Positions 4,679 through 42,486 of a stretch of DNA of 52,977 nt are shown piece by piece (position 1 is the first letter of the stretch; every line of letters starts with the position of its first letter). The notes under the pieces were generated by a model. It searched no databases. It was given only the letters and a program-made list of their open reading frames with translations, and was not told the origin of the DNA. The position numbers and the translations under genes are program-made. Location of the stretch: the NCBI GenBank assembly GCA_009786825.1, contig WQRI01000003.1, positions 1 to 52,977 on the forward strand, written 5' to 3'. The DNA comes from Bacillota bacterium (GTDB lineage Bacteria > Bacillota > Clostridia > Christensenellales > WQRI01).

Positions 4679-5424
4679 GAATAGTTTCAGCATTATTTTT
4701 AAACAACTTTCGCGACTTGCTTAAAACACCTACGCTTTTAATAAGTTTACTTATGTTTCCGGCAATAGCAGTTATAATGGCAATGTTCTTGCCTGTGCCT
4801 GAATATGGCGAAGAAAACTATTTAGAAGGGCTTACTGCCGGGCTTTTAGCGGCGAGTATGTTTGCGCCGATGTTTGTTGCTATGGGACCAATCAACACAG
4901 CCTCTAATAGCATAGCGGAAGATATAGAAAAGAAGCGCTTACGCTTTTTGATTATGGCAGGGGTAAATGCCGGGCATTATTTGGCGGCTATAATACTTTT
5001 TGTTATGGCAACATCTATACCGCCGATTATTGTTTTTGGGCTTATTGCACAGTTAAGTGTGTTTGGCTTTTCGGTGTTTTTTGGGGTTATGTTGGTGTCT
5101 ACGCTTGCGGCTACTGTTTTGGGTGCTATGGTTGGTATACTGTCTAAGAGTTTGCAACAAGCGGGGTCTATTAGCATAATGGCTATGATGTTTTTTGGTT
5201 TTATACCGATGTTTGTACCAATGATGGATATAGATGCGCTGAGCAACATAGCACAGTTTTTGTTTACGTATCAACTAAGGGAAGTTATGTTTTACGAATT
5301 AGTAGATGATGTAAATTTACTAAGGGCTATCGGAATAATTTTAGCAAATTTTGCTGTGTTTATAGCATTGTTTGCATATGTATATAGAAAGAGAGGCTTA
5401 AAGGGCAAACTGAGTGAAGAGTAA
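4675..5424 (+). CDS. ABC-2 type transporter permease
   Basis: 249-aa polytopic hydrophobic protein. Its ATG overlaps the ATPase stop (ATGA at 4675-4678). Confidence 0.75.
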   Translation: MRIVSALFLNNFRDLLKTPTLLISLLMFPAIAVIMAMFLPVPEYGEENYLEGLTAGLLAASMFAPMFVAMGPINTASNSIAEDIEKKRLRFLIMAGVNAGHYLAAIILFVMATSIPPIIVFGLIAQLSVFGFSVFFGVMLVSTLAATVLGAMVGILSKSLQQAGSISIMAMMFFGFIPMFVPMMDIDALSNIAQFLFTYQLREVMFYELVDDVNLLRAIGIILANFAVFIALFAYVYRKRGLKGKLSEE

Positions 5425-5426
5425 AC

Positions 5427-5585
5427 AATTTTAAATTTTAAATTTTTAATGTTAAATGTTTTCACCGCTAGCGCGGGCAAGATTACGTTTTGCAAATTGC
5501 GAGAATGTGTAACTTGTGGCTGTTAAAAAGTTTTGTCTATTACGAGTTTAATAATTTAACATTTAAAATTTAAAATTTAACATTA
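5427..5585 (+). repeat. F1 element copy C (forward)
   Basis: Arm AATTTTAAATTTTAAATTTTTAATGTTAAATG, TTTTCACCGCTAGCGCGGGCAAG, TTTGCAAAT, GCTGTTAAAAAG, CGAGTTTAA, right arm AATTTAACATTTAAAATTTAAAATTTAACATT. Confidence 0.9.
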
Positions 5586-5592
5586 AAATAAT

Positions 5593-6528
5593 ATGTTACA
5601 TAAATCTATTACAACCCTTGTGGGAAATACACCGCTTATAGAACTTGTTAATTATAACAAGGCTAATGGTTTGGGCTGTAAAATTATCGGTAAGTTAGAG
5701 AGTTTTAACCCAGCGGGCAGCGTTAAGGATAGAATTGCCCTTAATATGATTTTGGAAGCAGAGCGCGCGGGCTTGTTAAAGGCAGATAGTACTATTGTAG
5801 AGCCAACAAGTGGCAACACGGGGATTGGGCTTGCTAGTATTGCAGCGTCGCGGGGCTATAAAGTTATACTTACAATGCCCTCAAGTATGAGCAAAGAGAG
5901 GGTGCAATTGTTTAAAGCATACGGCGCGGAAGTTGTTTTAACCGAGGGCGCTTTGGGTATGAAGGGCGCAATTGCTAAGGCAGAGCAAATTGCTGCCGAA
6001 ACCAAAAATTCTTTTATGCCAAAACAGTTTGATAATGCGGCTAACCCTGCCGTTCATTTCGCAACTACAGGTCCAGAGATTTGGAAAGACACGGGTGGTG
6101 CTATAGATATTTTTGTAAGTGGCGTTGGCACGGGCGGAACAATTACGGGGGCGGGCAGTTTTTTAAAGTCTAAAAACCCTAGTCTTAAAATTGTTGCGGT
6201 AGAGCCTTTCGACAGCCCGGTTTTGTCTAAAGGCGTTGCTGCGCCACACAAAATACAAGGCATAGGGGCGGGATTTGTTCCAAGTATATTAAACACAGAA
6301 ATCTACGACGATATTATAACAGTTACAACAGAAAACGCAACACTCACTTCACGCGCCCTTGCAAAACTAGAGGGCTTACTTATGGGGATATCCTCAGGCG
6401 CTGCGCTTTTTGCAGCAACCCAGTTAGCAAAAAAACAAGAGAACAAAAACAAAACCATAGTAGTAATACTGCCCGACACGGGCGAGCGATATTTATCGAC
6501 AGAGTTGTTTTGCGAAGCAAAACAATGA
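5593..6528 (+). CDS. cysK: Cysteine synthase A (O-acetylserine sulfhydrylase)
   Basis: GNTPLIEL...[16 protein letters not shown]...[10 protein letters not shown]...[10 protein letters not shown] motifs, 311 aa. Confidence 0.9.
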
Positions 6529-6529
6529 T

Positions 6530-6679
6530 AAATGTTAAATTTTAAATGTTAAATGTTTTCACCGCTATCGCGTACAAAATCTATTTGCAAATTGCTTGCA
6601 AGCAAAAATTGCGACTGTTCAAAAGTTGTGGATTTTATGAATTCAGACATTTAACATTTAAAATTTACAATTTAACATT
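6530..6679 (+). repeat. F1 element copy D (forward)
   Basis: AAATGTTAAATTTTAAATGTTAAATG, TTTTCACCGCTATCGCGTACAAAAT, ATTTGCAAAT, ACTGTTCAAAAG, ATGAATTCAGA, CATTTAACATTTAAAATTTACAATTTAACATT. Confidence 0.9.
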
Positions 6680-6695
6680 ACCAAAAGGAGATTTT

Positions 6696-7361
6696 ATGGA
6701 AAATTTTTTAGAAAGACGTCAAGGTGTAGAAGACTTGCTTAGTTGTTTATTACGAGAGCCGTTCAGCGAGACTGAAGCAAAAGTTTTGCTAAAGTTTGGT
6801 ATTGCAAAAAATATAGACAACAGCAAGTTAGAAGAATTTCTAAGTGCGCTAGGCGAGACAAAACAAAGCATAAAAAAAGACCAGCAGTTTTTGTATGATA
6901 ACGACCCGTCCGTTACGGGCGTAGACCAAATTGCAAGTTTTACAAGTTTTTTTGCAGTAGCCGCTTACAGAATAGCGCACATTTTTCCGTGCGAAAAAAT
7001 TGCAAGGCAAATCTCTGAGTTTGCAAAATCTCTTACGGGGGTAGATATTCACCCAAAAGCAAAAATAGGCGTACCCTTTGCGGTAGACCACGGCGTAGGC
7101 ACAGTTATAGGTGAGACTGCCGTTATAGGCGATAGTTCTATGCTATACCACGGCGTAACCCTAGGCGCAAAGCATCTAAAAGAGCGCGAGCAAGTAGGGG
7201 AAGACCGCCACCCAAAACTAGGCAACAAAGTAATAGTATACTCTAACACAACAATACTAGGCAACATAAACGTACCCGACGGGCTAATCATAGGCGCAAA
7301 CAAATTCATAAAAAGCCAACAAGAAATAGATGAACTACAATCTAAATTCGGAAGCAGGTAG
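6696..7361 (+). CDS. cysE: Serine O-acetyltransferase
   Basis: Hexapeptide-repeat region HPKAKIGVPFAVDHGVGTVIGETAVIGDSSMLYHGVTLGA...HPKLGNKVIVYSNTTILGN. SD AAGGAG at 6685-6690. The first 50 aa of the track ORF are translation of F1 copy D. Confidence 0.85.
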   Translation: MENFLERRQGVEDLLSCLLREPFSETEAKVLLKFGIAKNIDNSKLEEFLSALGETKQSIKKDQQFLYDNDPSVTGVDQIASFTSFFAVAAYRIAHIFPCEKIARQISEFAKSLTGVDIHPKAKIGVPFAVDHGVGTVIGETAVIGDSSMLYHGVTLGAKHLKEREQVGEDRHPKLGNKVIVYSNTTILGNINVPDGLIIGANKFIKSQQEIDELQSKFGSR

Positions 7362-11605: not shown

Positions 11606-11896
11606 ATGGGTAGGTCATTAAAGAAAGGACCTTTCGTCTGCGAGAGGTTATTAAAAAGAGTAGAAGATATGAACGCAAAAGGCGAGAAAAAGCCAGTTAG
11701 AACTTGGTCGCGCTCGTCTACTATCTTCCCAGAGTTTGTAGGGCATACGATTGCTGTACACAACGGAAAAAAGCATATACCAGTATATTGCACGGAAGAT
11801 ATGGTAGGGCATAAACTTGGCGAATTTTCTCCAACAAGAACTTACTATGGGCATATAGTGGATAAGAAGAAGAAGGGTTCGGGCAAGAAGAAATAA
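11606..11896 (+). CDS. rpsS: 30S ribosomal protein S19 (uS19)
   Basis: [10 protein letters not shown]...[47 protein letters not shown] at 11597-11600. The track ORF's N-terminus is translation of F1 copy G. Confidence 0.97.
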
Positions 11897-12049
11897 TGTT
11901 AAATGCTAAATGCTAAATGTTAAATTGTTATACCGCTAGCGCGGGCAAGTTTCACCTTGCAAACTATCAAAAGGCAGAAATTGCAAACTGTTCAAATGCA
12001 GATGCTGTTAATGTGTTTAACCATTTAACATTAAAAATTTAACATTAAA
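11896..12049 (+). repeat. F1 element copy H (forward)
   Basis: AATGTTAAATGCTAAATGCTAAATGTTAAATTG, TTATACCGCTAGCGCGGGCAAG, CTTGCAAAC, ACTGTTCAAATG, CCATTTAACATTAAAAATTTAACATT. The arm begins with the last A of the rpsS TAA. Confidence 0.85.
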
Positions 12050-12108
12050 AATTATAACTTAAATTACAAAACTTAAACCGAATATTTTAAGTTTTAAGGG
12101 ATAACAAA

Positions 12109-12495
12109 ATGGCAACAAGAAGTAAAGAAAAAGCAGCAAAAAGAAAAGAAAATAAAGACAAGCGCCCGCGCGCTCACGCGAGATATATAAGAATATCTCC
12201 AAGCAAGGTGCGTATTGTTATAGATTTAATTAGGGGCAAAGAGTATTACGAGGCTTTGGCTATTTTAGAAAATACTCCAAAGGCGGCGTCTCCTATTGTA
12301 AAAAAGGTTTTAAATTCGGCGGCAGCAAATGCTGAGAATAACCTTAACCTTTCTAAAGATGGTTTGTTTGTTGCAGAAATTTTTGCAGACAGCGGACCAA
12401 CATACAAAAGGTTCAGACCACGCGCAAGGGGCAGAGCGCACAGAATATTAAAGCGCACTTGTCATATAACGGTAATACTAGAAAGCGCGATATAA
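12109..12495 (+). CDS. rplV: 50S ribosomal protein L22 (uL22), basic N-terminal extension
   Basis: [19 protein letters not shown]....A..IL...PK.A...V.KVL.SA.ANAENN. Confidence 0.95.
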
Positions 12496-12496
12496 T

Positions 12497-12655
12497 AAAT
12501 GTTAAATGCTAAATTTTAAATGTTTAATTGTTACACCGCTTAGCGCGGGGCAAAATCAATTTGCAAATTTTATACAAATCAAAGTGCTAACTGTTCAAAA
12601 TTAAAGTATTTAAAGGGTTTAAACATTTAACATTCAACATTTAAAATTAAACATT
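12497..12655 (+). repeat. F1 element copy I (forward)
   Basis: AAATGTTAAATGCTAAATTTTAAATGTTTAATTG, TTACACCGCTTAGCGCGGGGCAAAAT, ATTTGCAAAT, ACTGTTCAAAAT, AACATTTAACATTCAACATTTAAAATTAAACATT. Confidence 0.9.
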
Positions 12656-12670
12656 ATATAGAGGAAAATA

Positions 12671-13360
12671 ATGGGACAAAAAGTTAATCCGATAGGCCTT
12701 AGAGTAGGCATAATAAAAGATTGGGAATCTAAGTGGTTTGCAGACAAAAAAGACTTTGCAAATTTTTTGCACGAAGACCATAAAATCAGAAACCACATAT
12801 TTAACAAGTATGGTAACCATAGTTCTAGTAACTATTGCGGTATTTCGCAAGTTATAATAGAGCGCGCGGCTACAAGGCTTACTGTGTCTATTCACACTTT
12901 TAAGCCGGGGCTTTTAATTGGTAAGGGCGGTGCTGGTATAGAGGCACTAAAGCGCGAGCTTAAAAGAATAGTTAAAACAAACAAGCAAATTTTTATAAAT
13001 GTTATAGAAGTTAAGCGCCCAGACTTAGATGCAAAACTTCTAGCAGAGAGAGTTGCCCTGCAACTAGAAAAGCGTGGCTCGTTTAGGCGCGCTATGCGTT
13101 CTGCAATTCAGAGCGCTATGAGAGCGGGTGCTAAGGGTGTTAAGACTATGGTAAGCGGGCGACTAGACGGGGCAGAAATTGCAAGGTCAGAGCATTACCT
13201 AGAAGGTTCTATTCCGCTTCACACACTAAGGGCAGATATAGATTATGCTATTGCAGAGGCAAGAACAGCCTTTGGTCAGGTTGGTGTAAAAGTTTGGATA
13301 TATAAAGGCGACATTATCGGTAACGAGACTAGCAAAGAAAAGCAGAAAATAACGTTGTAG
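12671..13360 (+). CDS. rpsC: 30S ribosomal protein S3 (uS3)
   Basis: [12 protein letters not shown]....W.S.WFA....KPG..IGK.G..IE.L...EV..P.LDA.L.A...A.QLE.R..FRRAM. Confidence 0.97.
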
Positions 13361-13368: not shown

Positions 13369-13440
13369 CCAATTAACAATTGGGGCTAACAATTCAAGTT
13401 TAAAATACTTGTTAACTGTTACTTGTTAGTTGTTACTTGG
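13369..13440. repeat. Arms-only heptad hairpin (F1-like arms, no core)
   Basis: CCAATTAACAATTGGGGCTAACAATTCAAG, 9-nt loop TTTAAAATA, then CTTGTTAACTGTTACTTGTTAGTTGTTACTTGG. Confidence 0.7.
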
Positions 13441-13455
13441 GTGGAGATAAATATT

Positions 13456-13992
13456 ATGTTAATGCCAAGAAGGGTAAAAAGAAGAAAACAACATAGAGGT
13501 AGAATGAAGGGTATTGCCACAAGGGGTAATGTTATTGCCAATGGAGAATTTGGTATAATGGCACTAGAACCTTCGTGGATGACAAGCAGACAAATAGAAG
13601 CCGCACGTCGTGCTATGACAAGGTCTATTAGGCGTGGTGGTAAAGTATGGATAAACGTATTCCCTCATAAGCCAATTACTAAAAAGCCGGCTGAGACGCG
13701 AATGGGTAAAGGTAAGGGTAGCCCGGAGTATTGGGTTGCTGTTGTTAAGCCTAATCGTATTTTATTTGAAATGAGCGGGGTATCGGAAGAAGCGGCAAGA
13801 GAGGCTATGCGCCTTGCAATTAACAAACTGCCTATGAAGGCTAAGTTTGTTACGCGCAAAGAGTTAGAGGCAAGTGGCGTTATATCTCAAAAAATATTAA
13901 ACAATAAAATAAGGGCAGAAAAAGAAACTGCTAAAAAGGCTACAGAAGTGGCAGAAGCAACACAAGCAACTGACAAAGTGGAGGGCAAATAA
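13456..13992 (+). CDS. rplP: 50S ribosomal protein L16 (uL16), with an approximately 40-aa C-terminal tail
   Basis: [24 protein letters not shown]....GEFG..ALE. SD GGTGGAG at 13439-13445. Tail [39 protein letters not shown]. Confidence 0.95.
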
Positions 13993-14390
13993 TGAAAGCA
14001 AAAGAATGGAACAAGTTAACGGACGACGAGTTGATGTCTAAACTTAAAGATTTAAAAAATGAGTTATTTAACCTGCGCTTTGCCCACGCGACAAGACAAT
14101 TGTCTAACCCTTTGTCGCTTCGCACTACAAAAAAGGATATAGCAAGAATAAAAACAATTCTGCACGAGAGAGAACTTAAAACGGGTATAAAGCCTACGCA
14201 AGTTAAGGCACTAGAAACTAAGGCTGTTAAAAAGCCGGTGGAAACTAAAAAAGTTGAAGCAAAAAAAGTTGAAGCAAAAAAATCGGCTGAAGTAAAAAAG
14301 CCTACTGAGACTAAGGCGACAAGTGTTAAAAAAGTGGCAGAGGCTAAACAGACTGGCGCTATAGAAAAAAAGGCAGGAGGAGATAAATAA
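13992..14390 (+). CDS. rpmC: 50S ribosomal protein L29 (uL29), with an approximately 65-aa Lys-rich C-terminal tail
   Basis: [32 protein letters not shown] core. The ATG overlaps the rplP TAA by 1 nt. The tail contains [12 protein letters not shown]. Confidence 0.93.
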
Positions 14391-15817
14391 TGAGTGAAAA
14401 AAATATCCCTGCCACCAAGGCAGAAAAGTTAAAACAAACTATAGCAGACAACAAAGAAAAGGTTAAAGAAGCAAAGGTTGCACTATCTACTCTTCAAAAA
14501 GATGAAAAGGCAGCGTCTGCTTTAGTACTTAAATACGAAAAAAGTCTAGATACTTCTAACAAGTCTTTACAAAAGGCTGTTGGGCTTAAAGAGAGTTTAG
14601 CTTTAGCGGTAGAAAAAGCAAATGCTGGCAAGGCTGATGCGGCTGCAAACCTAAAGCAAAAGCAAGCAGATGCTAAGGCTAAAAAGGGTGACGGCAAAGC
14701 GGCGGAAGCAGTAGCAAAAGCGGAAGAGAGGCTTCAAAAAGCGAACACGTCCCTAGAGGCTGCTAAAATTAAAAACTCAGCAAACGAAATTATCATAAAA
14801 GAAAAGACTAAAGAAGTAGCGGGCATACAAAAAGATATAGAAAAAACGCAAAAAAGCGTTGCGGGTATAACTTCTAAACTACCTACGGCGCAAAAAAAGA
14901 TAGACGACCTAGAAGCAAAACTTACAAAAGCACTAGCAGACTTAGAAGCAGAAAAGGCTAAGGGCGCAGAGACTAAAGGCAAGGTTGCACCAGCGCCAAA
15001 GGCTACAGAGGCTAAGGCGGCTGCACCAAAAAAAGTTGCGGACAAGCCGGCGGCTAAGGCAGGGGCGAAAGCTGAAAAGCCGAAAGCTAGTCCAAGGGCA
15101 ACTGAAAAGGTTGCGACTAAGGTCAGTGAAAAAACAGCACCAAAGGCTACTACGGCAGAACCTGCAAAGGCTGTAAAGGCTACTACGCCAGCACCAACAC
15201 CAATAATTACTAAAAAGGCGGTAACTGTTAAGGAAGTAGATGGCGCAATTGTTGCTACTAAAAAAGTGGTAACAGTTAAGCAAGCGGGTGATAGCATAGC
15301 GGTTGTAACATCTAAGCAGGCAGTAACAGTAAAGCAAGCAGACGGAACATCAGTTACGCACAAGCCAAAAATTGTAGGCGAGTCTGATGTATCTGTATCA
15401 GAGTTTACAAGACCAGAAAAAAGGCAACAACTACAAACTGCTAAAAAGCAAAAACCACGTAAGGCGGTTGCATACTCTAGACCAGTTAAAACAATTAAAG
15501 AGGTTAAGCGCCAAAGAGAAGATGCGGCTAAAAAATCTGCAGAACTACTAGTAGAGCGTGCAGAGCGCAGACCACTTAGAAAAACAAGAACAGGAATTGT
15601 CGTATCTAACAAAATGGACAAAACAATTGTTGTTGCTGTTGTGTCTAAAGTTAAGCACCCAATCTACAAAAAAACAGTTAACCAAACAAAGAGATATAAA
15701 GCGCACGACGAAAACAACACAGCGGGCATAGGCGACACAGTATTAATTGCAGAGACTAGAAAACTTTCTAAAAACAAGTATTTTAGACTAGTAGATATTG
15801 TTGCACGCGCCAAATAA
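14390..15817 (+). CDS. rpsQ: 30S ribosomal protein S17 (uS17) fused to an approximately 391-aa N-terminal Lys/Ala-rich extension
   Basis: The C-terminal 84 aa (from about 15563), [69 protein letters not shown], are canonical S17. SD AGGAGGAG, and ATG 14390 overlaps the rpmC TAA. No start codon or SD lies near the core. Confidence 0.9.
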
Positions 15818-15972
15818 TGTTAAATTGTAAATGTTAAATGTTTAATTGTTTCACTCGCTAACGCTACAATATTTTTTGCACATTATACGTAATACAAAAT
15901 TTAGACTGTTAAAAAGCAAAAGCCTTAAAAGCGTGCAAACACTTTACACTTTACATTCTACATTTTACACTA
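15817..15972 (+). repeat. F1 element copy K (forward, diverged core)
   Basis: AATGTTAAATTGTAAATGTTAAATGTTTAATTG, TTTCACTCGCTAACGCTACAAT, TTTTGCACAT, ACTGTTAAAAAG, arm CACTTTACACTTTACATTCTACATTTTACAC. Confidence 0.8.
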
Positions 15973-16029: not shown

Positions 16030-16404
16030 ATGGTACAAATGCAAACGAGGCTAGTAGTTGCAGATAACTCTGGTGCAAAAGAGATTATGTGCATTAGGGT
16101 ACTAGGCGGCTCATTTAGAAAAAGCGGTAATATTGGCGATATAATTGTAGCAAGTGTTAAGTCGGCAAACCCGGGCGGAAACGTTAAAAAGGGTGATGTT
16201 GTAAAGGCACTTATTGTTAGAACGCACAAGGGCATAACGCGCCCAGATGGCTCTACAATTAAATTCGATGATAATGCGGCAGTAATAATAGATAATAACA
16301 AGCAACCACGCGGAAGCCGTGTTTTCGGACCAGTTGCAAGAGAAATAAGAGATAAAGATGCGGCTTTTGCAAAAATAGCATCTTTAGCACCAGAAGTTTT
16401 ATAA
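16030..16404 (+). CDS. rplN: 50S ribosomal protein L14 (uL14)
   Basis: [23 protein letters not shown]...[36 protein letters not shown]. Confidence 0.98.
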
Positions 16405-16608
16405 ATGTTAAATTGTAAATGTTAAATGTTTAATGGTTTCACCGCTAGCGCGGGCAATATTATATTTGCAAATTGTATTAATTATGAAAATGCAGGCTGT
16501 TAAAAAGTTTGGTATATAATGAGTTCAGCCATTTAACATTTAAAATTAAACATTTAACATTTACAATTTAACATTAAAATAAGCATTTAACATTAAAAAT
16601 TTAACATT
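16404..16608 (+). repeat. F1 element copy L (forward, extra partial right arm)
   Basis: AATGTTAAATTGTAAATGTTAAATGTTTAATG, GTTTCACCGCTAGCGCGGGCAAT, ATTTGCAAAT, GCTGTTAAAAAG, ATGAGTTCAGC, CATTTAACATTTAAAATTAAACATTTAACATTTACAATTTAACATT, plus a second arm piece at 16584-16608. Confidence 0.9.
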
Positions 16609-16623
16609 AATATAAGGGTGAAT

Positions 16624-17094
16624 ATGAATACTTTACACGTAAAAAAAGGTGATACGGTTTTGGTACTTGCTGGAAAAGACAAAGGTAAAAAAGGCAAGGT
16701 GTCTGCTACGTTCCCTAAAAAAAATAGAGTAGTAGTTGATGGAGTTAACACAATTACTAAGCACAAAAAAGCAAGAGACCCTAAAGATAAGTCGGGCAGA
16801 ATAAAGTTAGATGCGCCAATTAATGCATCTAATGTTATGGTAATTTGCTCTAAGTGCAACAAAGCAACGCGTATTGCAAAAGTAAAGGCAGAAAACGGCA
16901 AAATGGTAAGGGCTTGCAAAAAGTGTAATGCATTACTTGGTAACACTAGCATTGCTAAAAAGCGTACGGCTAAGTCTGACAAGGCTGATAAGGCGGTAGA
17001 CAAGGCAGACAAAAAGGTTGCTAAAAAAGAGAAAGAGCCAAAAGTTGCAGACGAGAAAGAAACCAAAAAGAAAAAAGATAAAATATTAGTGTAA
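16624..17094 (+). CDS. rplX: 50S ribosomal protein L24 (uL24), with a Cys4 knuckle and an approximately 50-aa Lys-rich C-terminal tail
   Basis: LHVKKGDTVLVLAGKDKGKKGKV...KNRVVV.GVN. KOW core. CSKCNK...CKKCN. Tail AKKRTAKSDKADKAVDKADKKVAKKEKEPKVADEKETKKKKDKILV. GTG 16618 is the alternative start. Confidence 0.92.
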   Translation: MNTLHVKKGDTVLVLAGKDKGKKGKVSATFPKKNRVVVDGVNTITKHKKARDPKDKSGRIKLDAPINASNVMVICSKCNKATRIAKVKAENGKMVRACKKCNALLGNTSIAKKRTAKSDKADKAVDKADKKVAKKEKEPKVADEKETKKKKDKILV

Positions 17095-17149: not shown

Positions 17150-17167
17150 AATATAAGGGTTAATAAA

Positions 17168-20100
17168 ATGAGTAAGGAAAAAAATCAGGTTGCTAAAGCA
17201 ACTGCAACCGATAAAACGAAAAAGCCAGCAGACAAAAAAGTTGTGGCTAAAAAAGAAACTGCTGCTAAAAAGCCAGCGGTAAAAAAAGAAGCGAAGCCAG
17301 CAGTTAAAAAAGAAACTGCTGTTAAGAAGCCTGCTAGTGCGGGTGCTTTAGATATTTCTAAGCAAAAAGCGGCGGCGTACAAAGTGTACGAGGCTAGCAT
17401 TAAAACAATCGCTGGTATAGAAAAAGATTTAGGGGCTTCTCACCTACAGCAAGCAAAAGCACTAGAGGCTGTAAGCAAACTTAACAAGTCGGCGGAAGCG
17501 CTTGTGACTAAGCAAGGCTCACTTCAAAAGCAATCTGATGATGCTAAGAAAAAACTTGAGGTGGCAAACAAAGAAGTTACAACTGCTAAGGCAGAAGTTA
17601 CAAAAGTAAAGGCTACGGCAACAAAAGCAAAGGCAGATGCATCTAAGGCAGAAGCAGATTTTAAAAAGGCGCAAACAAAAGTTGCACCTATTAAAGATGC
17701 GGTTGCAAAACTAGATAAAGAGTTAAAGGGCGCAAACGAAGCAACGCAAAAGGTTAAAAAAGCGGTTGTAGATACGTCCAGTGCGCTTAACACAACGGCT
17801 AAAGATGTAGAGGCTACATCTAAGGCTGTGCAAGATACATCTAAAACATTGCAAGACAGCACTAAGGCTTTAGGGGTTGCTGCTAAAGAAACTATTAAGG
17901 CACTAGAGAAGTTAAACAAAGTAAAAGCGGGTGACGACAAAGCAAAAAAAGCGGCAGAAGCCGAGCATAAAAAAGCGGTTAGCGCAGAAGAAAAGGCTAA
18001 GGCTTCTAACGAGAAGGCTAAGGTTGCAAGCGAAAAAGCAAAAGCGGCAAGCGAAAAGGCTAAGGCTGTAAACGAAAAAGCAAAGGCGGATAATGCTAAG
18101 GCTAAGACTGAGTCTAAAAAGTCTGATGAAAAACTAGCAAATGCGCAAAAAGACCAAAAGGCAAAGCAAGCAGACTTAACAAAGGCAGAGGCAGATGTTG
18201 CTAAGTTGTCTAAAGCGGTTGAGAGTGCAAAAACGGCGCAAAAATCGGCAGAGACAAAAGCGACGGCGCACGAGCAAAAAGTTAAGACGCTTGAGACAAA
18301 ACTTAAAGCAGAAAAAGATAAAGAAACAAAAATTTCGGCAGATATAAATAAAACAAAAGCAGAACTAGATAAAACAAAAAAGCAACTAGTTGTAGAGACT
18401 AAAAAAGAAAAAGACATAACAACTAAAGTATCTAAACTAGAAAAAGATGTAGACAAAGCGGCAAAAGAAAAAGAGAAGGCTTTTAACGCTTTAGTTAAGG
18501 TTATAACAACAGACATCAATCAAACAGAAGCGCAAAAAATTGCGGTAGACAAAGAGTTAACAAACGCTAAAGGGCAAGTTAGCACATTGGCTAAAGAAAA
18601 CACGGCTTTAAGCGCGCAAGTTAAAAAGTTAGAATCAGATGTTGCAAAAGCAACGCAAGGCTCTAACAAGTCGGCAGAAAAGGCAAAGCAGACAGCAGAG
18701 CGTGTTAAAAAGGCGTCGTTAGATGTTAAAGAAGCAAACAAAAAAGTACAAGAGAGTTTAAACGACCTTGTAAAAATAGATAAAGACACTAAAAAAGAAA
18801 GAGACGATTTTGCTAAAGCAGTAGAAAAGGCGGGCGCGCAAGATAAGGCGGCTAGTGATAAGTTAAACGCTAATTTTGCTAAAGCAAAAGCAGATATAGA
18901 TAAGGCTAATGCAAACAAAACAGCGCTAGAAGATGCTAGAAAAAAGGCTACAGAGCAACTAGCGCAAGCGCACCAAAAGTATAAAGATGCAGATGCGAAA
19001 GTTAAACTAGCGGGCAAAGAAAAGGTTTCGGGAGAGCTTCTAGATAAAATTAACAAAACGTTTGCGGGCGCGGCGGAAAGGCTAGAAAAGGCAAAGGCAA
19101 CAGAAAAGACTGCTAAAGACAAAATTGTGGCAAACGACAAACTAGTTAAAGACAAAGAAAAAGAGTTAGCAAAACACAAAGCAGACCTAGACAAACTTAA
19201 CAAAAAAATACAAGCAGACAAAACTAAGAGTGCGGACGCTAAAAAGAAACTAGATGAAAAAATAAAGGGGCTGATAGAAAAAACTAATGCTAAGCGCGAG
19301 GCGGCAAGTAGTGCTAAAGCAAAAGCAGACGAGGCTTTCAAGCAAGCAGAAGCACAAAATGCTCAGATTGTAGATGAAAAGAAAAAGGCAGATGATGTTA
19401 CAAAAACGTTGTCAGCGCAAAAGCAAGATGTAGATAAGAAGTTCCCTGTTGTTGCTAAACAACTAAAAGATGTTGAAGCGACTATTGCAAAAAATGAGCC
19501 TGTATCTAAAGCGCTAGGGGTAGAGATTGCAAGTAAGCGTGCAGAACTAGAGGCACTAATTGGCAAAACTAAAATGCCGGCGGTTAAAAAGCCAGCGGAA
19601 GTTAAAGTTGTTGCTAAGCCAAAACCACCAGCAGTTATTGCTAAGCCTGAGACTAAGGTGGCAGACAAAGCACAACCTAAGGTGGCAGATAAGGCAGAGC
19701 CGGTTAAGCCAGTTGCCCAGCCAATTGTAAGGGACAGAACTGCTGCTAAAGCGGATGCGGCGGCTCAGCGCGAGCAGCAACGTGCAGACCAAGTGGCTGC
19801 TAAACTGCAAAGCCAAAAGCAAGCGGCAGAGGCAGAAGCGGCAAGGCGCGCGACTGCTAAAGTTGAGGGTGATACTAGGCGTGCGGCAGAGCAAGCGGCA
19901 GCGGCTGCAGAGCAAGCGGAAGCAAGGCGTGCAGAAGCACTAGCAAGGCGCGAAGCAGAAGCACAAGAGGCGGCGACTAGCGCAGAAGCGGCAGAGCGCG
20001 AAAAACTAGCGACTCAAAAAGCAGAAGAAAAGGCAGCGGCAGAAAAAGCGACAAGGGAAGCAGAGGCAAAAGAAAGAGCAGAGCGCGAAGCGGCAGAAGC

Positions 20101-20749
20101 AAAAGCAAGGGCAGAGCGCGAGGCACTAGAGCGCGCTAAAAGAGAGGCTCAAGCACGCGAAAAAGCGGCAGAAGCGGTTGCAAAACTTAAGCGCCCAGCA
20201 ACGCCAAGACACCGCCTAAAACAGCACTACATCAACAACGTTATGCCGGCTTTAATGAAAGAGTACGCATACAAAAATGTAATGCAAGTTCCTAAAATAG
20301 ATAAAATCGTACTTAATATGGGGCTAGGCGATGTTAAAGACGACAGCAAAAAACTTCAGCAAGCGGTTAAAGAGTTAGAGCTTATCGCGGGTCAGCGCCC
20401 TGTTATCACTAAGGCTAAAAAATCTATAGCAACATACAGACTACGTCAGGGTATGAGCATAGGTTGTAAGGTAACACTTAGAGGCGAGCGTATGTACGAG
20501 TTTTTAGATAGATTTATCTCAATAGCACTACCAAGAAAGCGCGACTTTAGGGGTATCCCATCAAAGTCTTTCGATGGTAGGGGTAACTACGCAATGGGTA
20601 TAAAAGAACAACTTATTTTCCCAGAAATCTCGTACGATACTGTAGACAAAATAAGGGGCTTCGACATTGCAATTGTTACAACAGCCTACACAGATAAAGA
20701 AGCACTATCTCTACTTAAATCACTAGGCTTACCATTTACGACAAACTAA
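17168..20749 (+). CDS. rplE: 50S ribosomal protein L5 (uL5) fused to an approximately 1015-aa N-terminal Lys/Ala/Glu-rich, coiled-coil-like extension
   Basis: The last approximately 178 aa (from about 20213), [40 protein letters not shown]...[20 protein letters not shown], are canonical L5. A single uninterrupted ORF of 1193 aa. No ATG/GTG/TTG with SD lies at the core boundary. Confidence 0.88.
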
Positions 20750-21030: not shown

Positions 21031-21215
21031 TATCAAGCACTATAAACGGCGCAATACTTCGTTAAGGTTTACGGTTTTCTTGTTTGCGTACGCCAAGTAC
21101 GCGGCACGGCGAAAATCCGCACCTTTCCGACCGAGCCGTAAACCGTAAGGTTTTAGCCTTTTGCGTAGCAAAAGCGTCAAAAGGCGAGGTGTCTTGCTTG
21201 TTTCTAGCACTTGAT
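21031..21215 (+). repeat. F2 element copy 2 (long form, with the 65-nt module)
   Basis: Starts at the base after TAG. Outer IR TATCAAGCAC.../...GCACTTGATA, hairpin GCGTAC-GCCAA-GTACGC, module CGACCGAGCCGTAAACCGTAAGGTTTTAGCCTTTTGCGTAGCAAAAGCGTCAAAAGGCGAGGTGT at 21128-21192. Confidence 0.88.
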
Positions 21216-21337: not shown

Positions 21338-21730
21338 ATGACAGATCCTATAGCAGATATGTTAACAAGAATTAGGAATGGGCTGATGGCAAAGCACGAC
21401 ACGGTTGAGATTCCTACAAGCAAAATTAAAAGAGCAATAGCAGATATATTGCTAAGTGAGGGCTTTATAAACAAGGTAGAATACTTCGATGAAAAGCCTC
21501 AAGGCAGTATACGCATAACACTAAAGTACGGCAAGGGTGGCGAAAAGGTTATAAGGGGCATTAAAAGAATATCCAAGCCGGGTCTTAGAATTTACTCGGG
21601 CTATAAAGATATTCCGCGTATTTTAGGTGGTATGGGTGTTGTAATACTTTCTACTCCGCACGGCGTGTTGTCAGACAAAGAAGCAAGGCAACATAAGGTG
21701 GGGGGCGAAGTATTGGCTTATGTATGGTAA
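21338..21730 (+). CDS. rpsH: 30S ribosomal protein S8 (uS8)
   Basis: [15 protein letters not shown]......V.IP.SK.K..IA.IL..EGFI...ISKPGLR.Y......P....G.G..ILST..G...D. SD AGGAGG. Confidence 0.97.
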
Positions 21731-22465: not shown

Positions 22466-22653
22466 TTAAAATCCGTATATACTTCGCAATACGGCGTCAA
22501 GGCTTACGGTTTGCGCGGTTACGTACCGAGTGGTACGCGCCCTTGCAAATCCGCGCCTTTTCGACCGAGCCGTAAACCGTAAGGTTTTAGCCTTTTGCGG
22601 TAGCAAAAGCGTCAAAAGGCGAGGTGTCTTGCTTGTATCTACGAATTTTAATT
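22465..22653 (+). repeat. F2 element copy 3 (long form)
   Basis: Outer IR AATTAAAAT/ATTTTAATT. The first A is the last base of the rplF TAA. GCGCGG/CCGCGC stem, hairpin CGTACC-GAG-TGGTACG, 65-nt module at 22562-22627. Confidence 0.88.
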
Positions 22654-23227: not shown

Positions 23228-24511
23228 ATGTCAGAAGTTAAAGATAAAACAAAAAAGGAAGCAAAGCCAAAGGCAGAACCTAAAGCAAAGGCTGAAAAAG
23301 CGCCAGCAAAGGCTAAAGCTGAACCTAAGGCTACTACTGCAAAGGCAGAGCCAAAAGCAAAAGCAGAAAAAGTACCTGCTAAGTCTACTGCTACTAAAGT
23401 AGAAAAGCCAAAGGCAGAGCCTAAGGCTAAGGCTGAACCTAAGGCTAAGGCTGAGAAAGCGCCGGCTAAAGCTACTACTGCTAAAGCAGAGAAGCCAAAG
23501 GCTGAGCCTAAGGCTAAGGCGGAGCCAAAAGCAAAAGCTGAAAAAGCACCTGCTAAAGCAAAGGCAGAACCTAAGGCAAAAGCAGAACCAAAAGCAAAAG
23601 CTGAAAAAGCACCTGCTAAGTCTACTGCTACTAAAGCAGAGAAGCCAAAAGCAGAGCCTAAGGCAAAAGCAGAAAAAGCACCTACTAAAGTGGAAAAGCC
23701 AAAGGCTGAGACTAAGCCAAAGGCAGAGCCAAAGAAAGCAGAGCCTAAGGCAGAAAAAGTGGTTGCTGAAAAGGCGGTGGCTAAGGCTACTGCTAAGCCT
23801 GCTGAAAAGGCAGTCGTTGCTGAAAAGCCAACTGATAAGCCAGTTAGGGCAGACAAGGCTACTGCTACTGGGGCAGACAAGGCGGCGGCAAGAACTGGTG
23901 GTGCAGATAGAACAAGACAAACGGATAGACCAGCGGGCAGAGATGGTGAGGCTCAATCTAGCGAAAGAGGTCAGCGCGAACGTGGCGACAGACGCCCACC
24001 AAGAGAGCAAGACGATACAAAGCGTAAACTTATTGCTGTTAGGCGCGTTACTAAAGTTGTTAAGGGCGGACGCAATATGCGATTTAGTGCTTTAGTAGTT
24101 GTAGGGGATGGCGCTGGTATGATAGGCATAGGCTCGGGGCGCGCTAACGAAGTTCCGTCTGCTATTGAAAAGGCGGTGCAAGAAGCAAAGCGCAAAATGC
24201 AAAAGGTTTCACTTTTCGATACAACTATACCGCACAATGTAATCGGCAAGTTTGGCACTTCTCGCGTTATAATGTTACCAGCATCTAGGGGTACTGGTGT
24301 TATAGCGGGTGGTCCGGTTCGTGCTGTTATGGAAGCGGTAGGAATTAAAGATATCAGAACAAAGTGCCACGGCACGAATAACCCTATAAATGTTACAAGG
24401 GCTGTTATAGATGGGCTTATGCAACTAAGAACCAAAGAAGAAGTAGCGGCGCTTAGGGGCAAAACAGTAGCAGAATTAATGGGACAAAAAGAGACTGGGG
24501 AGGTGAAGTAA
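23228..24511 (+). CDS. rpsE: 30S ribosomal protein S5 (uS5) fused to an approximately 264-aa N-terminal KAEPKAKAE-repeat extension
   Basis: Core from about 24020: [55 protein letters not shown]...[25 protein letters not shown] precedes ATG 23228. No internal start at the core boundary. Confidence 0.9.
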
Positions 24512-24512: not shown

Positions 24513-25160
24513 ATGTCTAAAGAGAAAGAAAAAGTAAAGACTACTACCGCCTCAAAGCCAAAGGCAGAGCCTAAAGCAAAGGTAGAAAAGCCAAAGACTG
24601 CGGACAAGCCAAAAGTAGAAAAGGCAAAGGCAGAAAAAACTTCGCCATCTAAAATGGAAAAGCCGGCTACAAAAACCAAAGAAGTTGCTACAAAAACAGA
24701 AAAAGCAAAGGCAGAAGTTACTAAGGCTACAAAGACTACGGAAAAGACTGCACCAAAAACTACAACTGAAAAGGCAGAAAAAACAGCAAGTGCTAAGCAG
24801 TCTGTGCCACAAGTTAAGGCTTCTAAAGCGGCTAGTAAAACTACAAAGTCTAACAGACAAGTTCATATAACTAAAAAAGCAAAAAAGAAGCCAGACTTTA
24901 AAGGCTCTGTAAAAATAGTGCTTGTAAAGTCTACAATTGGGGCTTTACAAAGGCACATAGATACTATTACGTCTTTGGGCTTAAAGCGCATAAGAGACGA
25001 AGTTATACAACCTTTTAACGCGGCAACGGCGGGCAAAATTCACCACATCAAGCACTTAGTAAAAGTAGAATATATGCCTACAACTAATGCCCCAAAAAAG
25101 CCAAAGCACGTAAGCAAGTATAAAGCAAGCAAGTTAGAAGCAGCAAAAAAAGCAAAGTAG
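24513..25160 (+). CDS. rpmD: 50S ribosomal protein L30 (uL30), with an approximately 132-aa N-terminal Lys/Thr/Ala-rich extension and an approximately 25-aa C-terminal tail
   Basis: Core VKIVLVKSTIGALQRHIDTITSLGLKRIRDEVIQPFNAATAGKIHHIKHLVKVE from about 24909. SD GGAGG, and the ATG lies 1 nt after the rpsE TAA. Confidence 0.88.
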   Translation: MSKEKEKVKTTTASKPKAEPKAKVEKPKTADKPKVEKAKAEKTSPSKMEKPATKTKEVATKTEKAKAEVTKATKTTEKTAPKTTTEKAEKTASAKQSVPQVKASKAASKTTKSNRQVHITKKAKKKPDFKGSVKIVLVKSTIGALQRHIDTITSLGLKRIRDEVIQPFNAATAGKIHHIKHLVKVEYMPTTNAPKKPKHVSKYKASKLEAAKKAK

Positions 25161-25162
25161 TC

Positions 25163-25326
25163 AATGTTAAATGTTTAATTTTAAATGTTAAATGGTTAAA
25201 CTCATTATTGCAAATAGTTTCAAACAGCCTGCATTTAATCTTTTATTATAATTTGCAAAATGAGATTTTGCCCGCGCTAAGCGGTGAAACCATTAAACAT
25301 TAAAAATTTAACATTAAAAATTTAAC
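25163..25326 (-). repeat. F1 element copy O (reverse)
   Basis: AATGTTAAATGTTTAATTTTAAATGTTAAATG, GTTAAACTCATT, TTTCAAACAGCC, ATTTGCAAAAT, TTTTGCCCGCGCTAAGCGGTGAAAC, CATTAAACATTAAAAATTTAACATTAAAAATTTAAC. Confidence 0.9.
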
Positions 25327-25981: not shown

Positions 25982-27304
25982 ATGTTCAGTACATTAGTAA
26001 GAGGGTTTGCAGACCCATCAATTAGAAAAAAGTTAATCGTAACACTTTTGCTGGTTGTAGTATATAGAATAGGTTGTATTGTTCCGGTTCCCGGAATTGA
26101 TGCACAAATTTTTAACGACGAAGTTGCGAACAACGAGTTTTTAGGAATATTAAGCGCGATAACAGGTGGAGCGTTAGCCAACGGGGCTTTCTTTGCTATG
26201 GGTATAGCGCCGTATATTAACGCTAGTATAATAATGCAACTTTTAACTATTGCCTTGCCACGACTTCAAGCATTATCTAAGCAAGGCACAGATGGGCGTA
26301 AAAAAATAGCACGATATACAAGATACCTAACACTTGTTCTAGCAATTATACAAGCGGTTGGCTTAGTTGTTGCGTGGGGCGATGCTTCAATTTCAACAAC
26401 TCTACTAGAGCCTATTTTCGGAACGAACGATGCGGCTAATAGGTGGGTAACAACCATTATGGTTATATTGTTCTTTACGGCGGGTACTGCATTTACTGTT
26501 TGGATAGGAGAGCGCATAACAGACCTAGGCATAGGTAATGGTATATCACTACTAATTTTTGTAGGAATAATAGCAACGGCGGGTAACGCATTAAGAGACA
26601 ACATACTAGCAATTTCTATGGATAACTTGTACCCAGTTTGGGGACTCTTAGGCTTTGTCGGCTTGTTAATACTGATATTTGCGCTAATTATATATGTAGA
26701 TATGGCACAGCGGAAAATCCCCGTACAGTACGCAAAACAAGTTAAGGGCAGAAAAATGTATGGCGGACAAAGCACTTTCATACCAATGAAAATAAACGCG
26801 AGCGGTGTTTTACCTATTATATTTGCTTCCAGTTTGGTTGCATTCCCAAGCCTTATACTAATGGTTTTCAATATAACTGATGGGTGGTTTGCAGACTTTT
26901 GGAACAGATTTATGTTAATGGGTCGCCCGCTATATACAGTTGTAACTGGTTTGTTGATATTAGGTTTTGCGTTTTTCTATGCGCAGGCTAATTTCGACCC
27001 AATAGATGTATCTAGAAACATTCAGCAAAACGGGGGCTTCATACCGGGAATCAGACCGGGCAGACCAACGGCAGAATATCTAAAGCGGGTTCACACGCGC
27101 ATAACACTTTTTGGTGCGCTATTCTTAGCGGCAGTTGCAATAATACCGGCATTTATATTTGGCTTTGTTGTTCCGGGTAACCAAACGCTTATTAATGCGT
27201 TTACAGCAACCGGTATGCTAATTGTTGTATCCGTAGCGCTAGAGTTAGACAGACAAATACAAGCACAATTAATGATGAAGCAATACAAAGGCTTTTTAGA
27301 TTGA
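25982..27304 (+). CDS. secY: Preprotein translocase subunit SecY
   Basis: 440-aa polytopic protein. RKKLIVTLLLVVVYRIG..VPVPGID...GI.PYI.ASII.QLL...GGFIPGIRPG..T..YL. SD AAAGGAG. Confidence 0.97.
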   Translation: MFSTLVRGFADPSIRKKLIVTLLLVVVYRIGCIVPVPGIDAQIFNDEVANNEFLGILSAITGGALANGAFFAMGIAPYINASIIMQLLTIALPRLQALSKQGTDGRKKIARYTRYLTLVLAIIQAVGLVVAWGDASISTTLLEPIFGTNDAANRWVTTIMVILFFTAGTAFTVWIGERITDLGIGNGISLLIFVGIIATAGNALRDNILAISMDNLYPVWGLLGFVGLLILIFALIIYVDMAQRKIPVQYAKQVKGRKMYGGQSTFIPMKINASGVLPIIFASSLVAFPSLILMVFNITDGWFADFWNRFMLMGRPLYTVVTGLLILGFAFFYAQANFDPIDVSRNIQQNGGFIPGIRPGRPTAEYLKRVHTRITLFGALFLAAVAIIPAFIFGFVVPGNQTLINAFTATGMLIVVSVALELDRQIQAQLMMKQYKGFLD

Positions 27305-27307
27305 TAA

Positions 27308-27457
27308 AATGTTAAGTGTTAAATTTTTAATGTTAAATGGTTTCACCGCTTAGCGCGGGCAAAATGATTTTGCAAAATGGGTAAAATTTTCTAGCATACA
27401 CTTAAACAGTTTTGTGGTTTAACAATTTAAAATTTAACATTCAACATTTAGCATTAA
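27308..27457 (+). repeat. F1 element copy P (forward)
   Basis: AATGTTAAGTGTTAAATTTTTAATGTTAAATG, GTTTCACCGCTTAGCGCGGGCAAAAT, TTTTGCAAAAT, ... right arm AACAATTTAAAATTTAACATTCAACATTTAGCATT. Confidence 0.85.
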
Positions 27458-27462
27458 AACTT

Positions 27463-28152
27463 ATGAACATAATTATACTTGGTGCGCAGGGGTCTGGAAA
27501 AGGCACTCAGTGCGAAAAATTGAAACAGCATTATAACATACCGCACATAGCAACGGGTGATATACTAAGGTATAATATAAAAATGCAAACGGAATTAGGC
27601 AAAAAGGTAGAGCCGATTGTTAAAAGTGGCGCACTTGTTCCGGACGACATACTAATAGAGTTAATGGGCGGCAGAATAAAAGAGGCGGATGCAGAAAAGG
27701 GCTTTTTACTAGATGGCTTTCCGCGTACTTTGGCGCAAGCGGTAGGGCTAGAAAACATTAAGGCTATAGATGTTTGCGTATATATAGAAGTAGACCAGCA
27801 AGCATTAATACAAAGGCTTTCTAATAGGCGAATGTGTGATACGTGCGGTAACATTGTAAGTGTGCTAACACACACGGGTGATGTTTGCGGTAAGGCTAGC
27901 CAAACTACTAGCGAGGGCGAGAGCAAAGGCAAGGTTAAGGGCGAAGCAAGCCAATGCAAAGGCAAATTATTTCAGCGAGACGACGACAAGCCAGAAGCAA
28001 TAAAAACAAGGCTAGATGCTTTCTACACACAAACTTTTCCGCTTATAGACTATTACAAAAATCAGAACAAACTTGCTCGCGTAGATGGCAACCAAAGTGT
28101 AGAGCAAGTGTTTACAGACATCAAAGAAGCGCTACTAAAAGCAGGTTTTTAA
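27463..28152 (+). CDS. adk: Adenylate kinase, with an enlarged zinc LID
   Basis: MNIIILGAQGSGKGTQ...GDILR...LLDGFPRT..Q...RR.C..CG...QRDDD. The track ORF's first 17 aa are translation of an F1 arm. Confidence 0.95.
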   Translation: MNIIILGAQGSGKGTQCEKLKQHYNIPHIATGDILRYNIKMQTELGKKVEPIVKSGALVPDDILIELMGGRIKEADAEKGFLLDGFPRTLAQAVGLENIKAIDVCVYIEVDQQALIQRLSNRRMCDTCGNIVSVLTHTGDVCGKASQTTSEGESKGKVKGEASQCKGKLFQRDDDKPEAIKTRLDAFYTQTFPLIDYYKNQNKLARVDGNQSVEQVFTDIKEALLKAGF

Positions 28153-29770: not shown

Positions 29771-29900
29771 TATTTGAAGTGCTATATACGGCGTTATACT
29801 TCGGCGAGTGTTGCGGTTTTCTGCGGTTGCGTACAAGTAGTACGCGCCCTTCGCAAAGCCGCAGACTTCCATGCCTAACTCGCATCTAGTCTCAAATATC
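29771..29900 (+). repeat. F2 element copy 4 (short form)
   Basis: Starts at the base after TAA. Outer IR TATTTGAAG/(T)CTCAAATA, CTATATACGGCGTTATACTTCGGCG, stem CTGCGG/CCGCAG, hairpin GCGTAC-AAGTA-GTACGC. Confidence 0.85.
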
Positions 29901-30000
29901 TAGTGTTAGCCTGTGTTTGAGTATTTTTAAGTAGTTTTCGCTTGTAATCAGATTTCGATTTACTAACGCAAAAAGTCAGTTTTAAAAGGAGTATATAAAA

Positions 30001-42268: not shown

Positions 42269-42271
42269 TTC

Positions 42272-42430: not shown

Positions 42431-42486
42431 AATAAATAAATAAAATTCATAAAGTTGGTTTTGTGTAACCAACAAGGAGAAAAAAA

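Follow-up and report, generated by a model that had tools for sequence, protein, structure and literature searches.

How large an addition can a universal ribosomal protein carry in a bacterium, and is such an addition a genuine part of the gene product? The question is raised by the rplE gene in contig WQRI01000003.1 of an uncultured, gut-type member of the Clostridia (Bacillota; assembly GCA_009786825.1, Christensenellales lineage), whose 52,977 nucleotides (nt) are referred to below as the window. Here the gene for ribosomal protein (r-protein) uL5 appears as one uninterrupted open reading frame (ORF) of 1193 codons plus a stop, starting with ATG and specifying a product of 129 kDa (pI 9.7), which is about 6.6 times the usual size of uL5. 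Ribosomal proteins are highly size-constrained, and their extensions in bacteria usually measure tens of residues. It can be said with high confidence that the ORF encodes a single real gene product, and with moderate confidence, judging from the sequence, that the added arm would be retained on the mature ribosome, while its specific role as a tether or spacer is held at low confidence and is a best guess. Taken as a whole, the reading of an authentic rplE, whose uL5 is made as one 129-kDa polypeptide with an arm that acts as a ribosome-anchored tether or spacer, is considered to stand slightly better than an even chance.

The recognisable uL5 lies only at the C-terminus of this product. The NCBIfam L5 equivalog NF000585 aligns with residues 1015-1192 (profile positions 3-180 of 181; 283.7 bits, cut-off 186), and both Pfam domains score over their gathering values, with Ribosomal_L5 (PF00281) at residues 1037-1093 (88.6 bits, cut-off 34.9) and Ribosomal_L5_C (PF00673) at residues 1098-1190 (133.3 bits, cut-off 27.8). 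This core is 62-73% identical to uL5 of relatives. An initial annotation of the same DNA had described a uL5 of 1193 amino acids (aa) with an N-terminal extension of about 1015 residues and an L5 core from about codon 1016, and the single ORF, the exclusively C-terminal profile matches and the first aligned residue at 1015 agree with that description. The 1,014 residues that precede the first NF000585-aligned residue in the same polypeptide make this an r-protein extension as defined by Xue et al. (2022), namely more than 20 aa past the E. coli termini, and the total of 1193 aa lies outside the approximately 180-200 aa of bacterial uL5. Within the extension there are no stop codons in frame 1, and 63 and 118 in the remaining forward frames. 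Purine-rich composition was considered as the cause of the open frame and was ruled out, as the chance of 1015 open codons from base composition is P = 7e-27 and the longest open run among 500 shuffled versions of the extension was 190 codons. Codon usage in the extension is like that of the r-protein cores in the window (GCC 1%, ACC 2%, GTC and CTC 0%). The extension is also overlapped by two antisense ORFs (331 and 273 aa), which were discounted as a consequence of the purine richness of the sense strand.

The position of the gene and the signals around its start also favour a single cistron that begins at ATG 17168. The ORF sits between rplX (uL24) and rpsN (uS14) in the S10-spc-alpha cluster, in the same order as in relatives, and its ATG is preceded at -13 to -9 by AAGGG, a Shine-Dalgarno (SD)-like motif that also precedes uL24 and uL22 in the operon; nearly all remaining genes of the cluster have an SD of the GGAG or GAGG type. 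From codon 850 onward the in-frame starts are GTG 876 and ATG 1026, 1030, 1039 and 1051, all without an SD, and a scan of the entire ORF found no 5-nt SD before any in-frame start. No promoter-like or terminator-like site was found on the + strand at the core boundary. The initial annotation had held that no SD-bearing start lies near the core boundary, which is true of GTG 876 and ATG 1026, 1030 and 1039, and that the first methionine falls inside the conserved N-terminal helix, where codon 1026 (nt 20243) does lie, within helix 1; its further view that separate initiation of a normal L5 is unlikely gains from the SD, the hairpin described below and the gene order, all of which point to ATG 17168. 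Gene callers conflict on this locus: on the window's own contig of 53 kb, a protein of 168 aa was called from ATG 20243 (P0001; 20243-20749), as against 1193 aa (17168-20749) from ENA and Logan. The 168-aa product is without the RLKxHY start of helix 1, which all relatives have. A uL5 of 1193 aa would stay hidden under automated annotation of the former kind.

The start of rplE is further marked by a conserved mRNA hairpin in codons 6-15, with the structure U-C-[A]-GGUUGC, loop UAAAGCAACU, GCAACC-G-A and a stem of 6+2 bp, whose first stem nucleotides lie 20-25 nt downstream of the A of the AUG. A hairpin at the matching distance from the start codon, with covariation, is present in about 90 relatives. 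In typical relatives uL5 has 195-203 aa and starts with M-A-E/D-K-K-N/T-Q-V-A-K-x-x-A-T-D/E, the core following about 5-10 residues later; residues 1-15 of uL5 make up the hairpin-encoded section, and the 10 residues encoded by the hairpin itself are called the tag below. In a search whose pattern allowed any synonymous codon in this region, the codons for Q7 (CAG), V8 (GTT), A13 (GCA) and T14 (ACC) were invariant over 54 distinct sequences, and the adjacent Lys codons varied freely. All eight pairs were intact in 42 of 42 distinct sequences, with no broken pair, and three independent compensatory double changes were seen, GGUAGC/GCUACC (L175), GGUCGC/GCGACC (L207) and GGUUAC/GUAACC (L210), the last of which amounts to two amino-acid replacements; L218 has a single G.U pair. 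The loop consensus is 10 nt, UAARGNANCU. A protein-level reading of the tag was dropped, since the synonymous sites are invariant and the stem covaries; the N-terminal tag is conserved as RNA, and not demonstrably as peptide. Because this rplE-specific 5' hairpin stands at its usual distance from ATG 17168, with the core about 1,000 codons downstream in the same frame, ATG 17168 is taken to be the orthologous rplE start.

Structured RNA at the start of rplE is likewise found in E. coli, where the S8 operator of the spc operon overlaps the rplE start (PMC3616713; PMC4176348). In the published S8 motif, the internal loop is made up of A595-(A596-U644) and (G597-C643)-U641 together with an A642 that is invariant (PMC4176348). 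As opposed to this operator, the rplE hairpin has a continuous stem, with no internal loop of seven nucleotides mimicking 16S helix 21, and the position equivalent to A642 varies (A/G/C/U). Identity with the S8 operator was rejected on the grounds that the published helix-21 motif is not recognisable. No Rfam family matched the hairpin, gathering and permissive thresholds both giving nothing real in the window. In these Christensenellales-like bacteria the hairpin is, on its sequence features, a candidate new regulatory element (leader or operator) of the spc operon; the S8 gene is encoded in the window.

The extension itself has a mass of 109 kDa and a net charge of +74, is without Trp and Cys, and is built of successive blocks (Table 1) that were modelled with single-sequence AlphaFold2 (AF2) as a monomer only. 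The basic tail at residues 16-60 has a predicted local distance difference test (pLDDT) score of about 30 and no secondary structure. In the region that follows, the full-length model predicts helices at residues 63-144, 176-250, 257-406, 417-495, 500-613, 622-758, 760-774 and 784-796, and hydrophobic 3.5-residue periodicity over residues 61-800 has a power of 0.66, where shuffled sequences average 0.15 (z = 15.4), a value reached by 0 of 1000 shuffles. The Pro/Lys/Val linker is modelled as coil, and is followed by one helix of 148 residues (858-1005), about 22 nm long if fully helical, and a short coil (1006-1012) before the core. Residues 858-1010 are 37% Ala, 21% Glu, 13% Arg and 10% Lys (44% charged); the 3.5-residue periodicity is not seen here (z = -1.1), and opposite-charge pairs at i/i+3 and i/i+4 number 37 against 26.1 (z = 2.7). 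The DNA of the extension is mostly non-repetitive, with the exception of 21/42-nt units at about 17990-18115. Self-comparison of the extension gave just two weak internal matches, and a reading of it as a tandem domain array was rejected. Much of this anatomy had been anticipated in the initial annotation: the KKxxAKK repeats at the start are found as KKPAxKK-type repeats in residues 16-60, the heptads with a 21-nt DNA period as EKAKAxx heptads with 21/42-nt periodicity at 18008-18110, the P/K/V linker at residues ~797-857 and the Arg/Glu/Ala block at residues ~858-1010, and the coiled coil that it suggested is in keeping with the periodicity and the long AF2 helices. Modelled alone, residues 257-613 reach a pLDDT of 84 with a predicted template modelling score (pTM) of 0.40 and fold, in this model, as an antiparallel coiled coil whose three helices (57, 177 and 113 residues) are joined by two short turns. 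The heptads, the few self-repeats, the AF2 helices and the salt-bridge pairs together show that the extension is structured and ordered beyond mere low complexity.

The arms of SMC, MukB and Rad50 and the hairpins of chemoreceptors are long heptad helices that fold back on themselves, as is predicted for residues 257-613. The best Foldseek matches of the 257-613 model are a chemoreceptor hairpin of T. maritima, the Smc arm of B. subtilis and the elbow of MukB (2ch7, 5nnv, 6h2x). In contrast to SMC-type arms, the extension has no ATPase head, hinge or signalling tip, and the likeness is architectural only. The SMC_prok_B profile TIGR02168 reaches 44.8 bits against a cut-off of 567, over a coiled-coil segment only, which is generic coiled-coil similarity and does not make the protein an SMC member. 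Residues 858-1010 resemble ER/K single alpha-helices in being rich in Ala, Glu, Arg and Lys, in having no hydrophobic periodicity and in their enriched i/i+3 and i/i+4 opposite charges; compared with classical single alpha-helices they are less charge-dense (44% charged, 37% Ala), and the helix is a predicted one.

Searches for homologues of the extension were negative. With the full-length query, an index of 5.8 billion proteins gave no match at E <= 1e-5, the 8,000 scored candidates sharing short words only, and the less repetitive residues 400-640 returned nothing from the same index. Searched exhaustively with phmmer, 1.84 billion representative proteins yielded a single match to residues 1-1015, of a generic coiled-coil kind (E = 4e-5). 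Neither the index search nor the phmmer search returned the organism's own 1,193-aa protein. A PDB sequence search of the extension found no match, and a metagenome scan with six extension peptides gave 599 pattern matches, of which 0 were confirmed. Since a local control indicated that phmmer at that database size detects homologues down to about 30% identity, the negatives point to orphan status rather than filter failure, and in the public data searched the extension is, at the level of sequence, an orphan. The exact 1,193-aa protein is nevertheless encoded by 5 contigs from five collection size-blocks (one of 2-5 kb, four of 50-200 kb). The DNA of two of these contigs was read, one from an ENA megahit metagenome assembly and one from a Logan run assembly, and each is 100% identical to the window, although the two may share one biological sample. 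For the 475-aa uS17 of the same operon the situation is the same.

The site of the extension is variable among relatives. An exact 47-mer search showed that the genome is absent from the GTDB representatives. By SecY, which shares at most 55-58% identity with any GTDB representative, the closest organisms are uncultured Clostridia/Bacillota metagenome-assembled genomes (MAGs), some of which may come from termite guts to judge by their isolate names; next come MAGs of Christensenellaceae, Ca. Scatosoma and Borkfalkia. The length survey drew on about 70 hairpin-bearing genomes, about 80 SecY-neighbour genomes and about 100 metagenome contigs, and covers the clade with about 300 rplE genes rather than being an exhaustive census. 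Across these genes uL5 has 179-377 aa, mostly 179-213, with outliers of 233, 242-316 (e.g. L147, P0006-P0038) and 377 aa, the last in MAG Co191P3bin30 (L210, WQSV01000001.1), which is among the closest SecY neighbours; an apparent 246-aa uL5 in L209 is mostly a longest-ORF overcall, the likely start giving about 220 aa. In each outlier, and more broadly in relatives with a uL5 of 213-377 aa, the inserts, of 20-200 aa, are rich in K/A/T/E/P and lie between the hairpin-encoded tag and the RLKxxY core. This spacer measures about 5-10 aa in most relatives, against about 20-185 aa in some. Intermediates at the insertion point exist, at 213, 233, 242-316 and 377 aa. That the scale of the uL5 extension is unmatched, as had been supposed in the initial annotation, holds for this survey, in which none of the relatives exceeds 377 aa, and to our knowledge no core r-protein of a bacterium has been described that bears a structured arm of some 1,000 residues. 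Other r-proteins of relatives are also long, with uL24 of 280-283 aa in L162 and L173 and uL30 of 162 aa in L207.

Within the window, uL5 is one of seven extended r-proteins of the operon, whose extra residues sum to about 2,000 per ribosome (Table 1). In uS17 the order of heptad helices, A/P/K linker, charged segment and core is like that of uL5, and residues 1-200 have heptad periodicity with z = 6.3. A common origin of the two extensions is not established, as their similarity of 37 bits is compositional only. The uS17 extension also contains three repeats of about 17 aa with the pattern VTVKxxDG, and uS5 is encoded with 63/87-nt tandem repeats that specify a 15-residue unit. K/A-rich tails are not limited to r-proteins, since a small protein of the V-type ATPase gene cluster has one. 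An r-protein extension rich in K/A/P/E appears to be a lineage trait.

On the reading preferred here, translation would start at ATG 17168 and run through the hairpin and about 1,000 extra codons into the complete uL5 core, and the extension may have originated by runaway growth of the hypervariable spacer that separates the core from the RNA element near the start. From its distal end, the polypeptide would consist of the Lys/Ala/Pro tail, about 740 aa of heptad helices, the Pro/Lys/Val hinge, the Ala/Glu/Arg helix of about 150 aa and the core, which would join 5S rRNA in the central protuberance in the normal way. A stand-off of about 20 nm could be provided by the stiff helix, which would keep the cationic arm (+74) clear of tRNA and factor traffic, and the arm would act as a tether or spacer, possible partners being nucleic acid (through the basic tip), other ribosomes or the uS17 arm. 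It is the order of modules outward from the core, from stiff helix to hinge, fold-back coiled-coil rods and basic tip, that suggests this role. The uL5 arm would belong to a wider elaboration of ribosomes in this lineage, with about 2,000 residues in seven proteins. It has been described that uL5 is essential in E. coli, where it is needed for assembly of the central protuberance (PMC10531944). If this is true here, the cell could not survive a break of the frame in the 3 kb before the core, whether by frameshift or by stop codon, and the full-length product must be made.

Several points weigh against this reading. The case for retention of the extension on mature ribosomes is drawn from sequence and models, and takes the N-terminus of uL5 to be solvent-exposed as in ribosome structures. 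Since the core that follows it is essential, even a useless extension would have to keep its frame open. The public data searched gave no orthologue of the extension, and every recovered copy is 100% identical, which leaves no population variation to examine, so that purifying selection on the extension is not measurable. The full-length single-sequence AF2 model has a pLDDT of 52.8, the Foldseek matches of residues 257-613 (template modelling scores of 0.38-0.41, E >= 0.08) are not significant, and Foldseek of both models, full-length and fragment, gave no significant match. A second rplE of normal length may also exist outside the 53-kb window.

Of the other explanations, the one that survives best is a neutral, ratchet-like expansion, in which the extension is translated and stays attached to uL5 without a specific function, in a lineage prone to Lys/Ala/Glu/Pro-rich insertions; such an expansion would be irreversible by frameshift or nonsense mutation because of the essential core downstream. 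Consistent with this are the K/A-rich tails, found in the window on seven r-proteins as well as on a V-ATPase subunit, the inserts of varying length at the same uL5 site and in uL24 of relatives, the orphan status of the extension, and repeat-filled intergenic spacers of 70-330 nt, as opposed to about 10 nt in relatives, which suggest weak selection for compactness. However, heptads sustained over about 740 aa and an ordered series of blocks are unexpected from slippage-driven low complexity, repetition at the DNA level is nearly nil, and uS17 has the same ordered architecture. About 1,000 residues on a protein present once per ribosome are also costly, and in-frame deletions could remove them. 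On balance this explanation is thought unlikely, although it deserves serious weight.

A broader version of the tether or spacer reading, in which the uL5 and uS17 arms, together with disordered polycationic brushes on uS5, uL30, uL24, uL29 and uL16, physically connect ribosomes with one another or attach them to the nucleoid, mRNA or envelope, is speculative and regarded as doubtful. If true, it would amount to a ribosome-borne scaffolding system without counterpart in known bacteria.

It is also conceivable that uL5 is made as a pro-protein, whose arm is cleaved off in the Pro/Lys/Val linker, for example, or beside the core, leaving a uL5 of normal size together with a separate coiled-coil protein. 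So large a product would then be compatible with a conventional ribosome, and both the 60-residue linker (797-857) and the coil at 1006-1012 are plausible protease-accessible sites. Yet Pfam and NCBIfam searches found no protease motif, intein or self-cleaving domain, like processing would be needed for six more r-proteins of the operon, and the inserts of 100-200 aa in relatives form a continuum with no separable domain, all of which makes cleavage improbable. Much less probable still is the production of two proteins in one frame, with uL5 initiated internally at about codon 1016-1026 and the upstream 3 kb constituting a separate coiled-coil protein, as the 168-aa gene call P0001 from ATG 20243 would imply; against it stand the in-frame starts from codon 850 without an SD in an operon where nearly all genes have one, the incomplete helix 1 of the 168-aa form, the lack of a stop codon to end an upstream cistron, and the rplE-specific hairpin located far from the core. 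An assembly or sequencing artefact, in which unrelated sequence was fused to rplE by a chimeric join or because a stop or frameshift was missed, is scarcely credible, for although the sequence was assembled from short metagenome reads, and errors are common in regions of low complexity, 5 contigs encode the exact protein (two with 100% identical DNA), the region is essentially without repeats, codon usage in the extension is native, and the ORF is bounded by features shared with orthologous rplE genes, the hairpin at the 5' end and the core at the other.

Extensions of bacterial r-proteins are common, mostly disordered by prediction and mostly of unknown function, with 11 r-proteins extended in Mycoplasma pneumoniae, where disruption of such extensions affects fitness (PMC9534751). 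The uL5 arm is like these in being a lineage-specific terminal addition to a universal r-protein (Xue et al., 2022; PMC9534751), but differs in comprising 1,015 aa (109 kDa) on one protein, in being mostly helical by prediction and ordered in heptads, and in having company on a total of seven proteins of one operon. It is best described as a real, though sequence-level, finding from a single uncultured organism, and as a new, extreme form of the known r-protein extensions. Another core translation component with a variable N-terminal extension is IF2, whose extensions are lineage-variable, disorder-prone and linked to stress adaptation (bioRxiv 10.64898/2026.02.08.704698); unlike uL5, IF2 is a factor and not a stoichiometric ribosome subunit, and its extensions are described as disordered, not as coiled coil. 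Residues 16-60, and the K/A/T inserts of relatives, share their composition with histone-H1-like Lys/Ala/Pro tails such as chlamydial Hc2 (PF07382), and one relative (P0012) carries a precomputed PF07382 match; as opposed to Hc2-type nucleoid tails, this tail is on a ribosomal protein, and its nucleic-acid binding is putative only. A uL5 of 6.6 times the usual size, with an ordered arm of coiled coil and stiff helix, would stretch the limits of the load that a functional bacterial ribosome can bear, the approximately 2,000 added residues corresponding by our estimate to about one quarter more protein mass. If the arm is retained, it would be a natural case for ribosome positioning, spacing and tethering, and a ready handle on the central protuberance; if it is junk, it would be a case of an essential downstream domain locking in a costly neutral expansion.

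Table 1. Positions of the features discussed, numbered from the first nucleotide of the window (empty cells: no value given)
Feature	Position	Strand	Basis or remarks
rplE ORF	17168..20749	+	ORF listing, Pfam, NCBIfam, stop-codon statistics
SD-like AAGGG before rplE	17155..17159	+	9-13 nt 5' of start codon
Conserved mRNA hairpin, codons 6-15	17185..17211	+	Frozen synonymous sites, covariation, folding
Basic Lys/Ala/Pro tail, aa 16-60	17213..17347	+	K 32%, A 23%; KKPAxKKE repeats
Heptad-repeat helical region, aa 61-796	17348..19555	+	Eight predicted helices, 665 residues in total
DNA tandem repeat, 21/42-nt units (family D14)	17990..18115	+	EKAKAxx heptads; only clear one in the extension
Pro/Lys/Val linker, aa 797-857	19556..19738	+	Composition; AF2 coil, pLDDT ~28-34
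Ala/Glu/Arg(/Lys) long helix, aa 858-1010	19739..20197	+	Without heptads; single-alpha-helix-like
Canonical uL5 core, aa 1015-1193	20210..20749	+	NF000585, PF00281, PF00673
Internal ATG, codon 1026	20243..20245	+	Without SD, within conserved helix 1
S8 gene	21338-21730		Encoded in window
uL16, 189 aa, K-rich C-tail	13423-13992		Relatives 140-218 aa
uL29, 132 aa, K-rich C-tail	13992-14390		Relatives mostly 63-82 aa
uS17, 475 aa, ~395-aa N-extension	14390..15817	+	Relatives 83-116 aa
uL24, 158 aa, K-rich C-tail	16618-17094		Relatives up to 293 aa
uS5, 427 aa, ~260-aa K/A/E/P repeat N-extension	23228-24511	+	Relatives mostly 165-198 aa (one ORF 244)
uL30, 215 aa	24513-25160	+	Relatives mostly 59-104 aa (one 162)
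Small protein of V-type ATPase gene cluster	39736-40173		Lys/Ala/Thr-rich tail AAKKAPAKASASKATAKAAPKTTASKTTAKKPAKK
Composite spacer element, examples (nearly every spacer)	2613-2810, 5421-5603, 6520-6698, 11889-12072, 12492-12674, 15810-15971
Composite spacer element, further examples	16398-16616, 25157-25326, 27295-27482, 42266-42454, 44988-45147
Second intergenic repeat family	21035-21212, 22470-22647, 29772-29904, 33471-33652, 45487-45619, 48953-49085

The intergenic spacers of the window, at 70-330 nt compared with about 10 nt in the operons of the two relatives inspected, are filled with species-specific repeats. Nearly every spacer contains a composite element that consists, after the stop codon, of 7-nt units (AATGTTA/AATTTTA), a GC hairpin CCGCTAGCGCGG, a middle part of about 40 nt, and a run of reverse-complement 7-mers, CATTTAACATT..., directly before the next SD. 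Its arms gave 45 matches where 0 were expected, and the spacer between rplN and rplX forms an AU-rich stem of 31 bp when folded (z = -5.5). The element was absent from about 400 other fetched loci, and may represent an RNase III-type processing site or a MITE-like (miniature inverted-repeat transposable element) invader. A second repeat family, of about 130-170 nt and 65-92% identity, occupies the S14-S8, L6-L18 and rpoA-L17 spacers and those among the V-ATPase genes. At the other end of the window, an ORF of 390 aa on the minus strand (404-1576) has a long Pro/Thr/Ile/Gln-rich centre (PIPTPVPTPQPQPII...) flanked by two globular ends.

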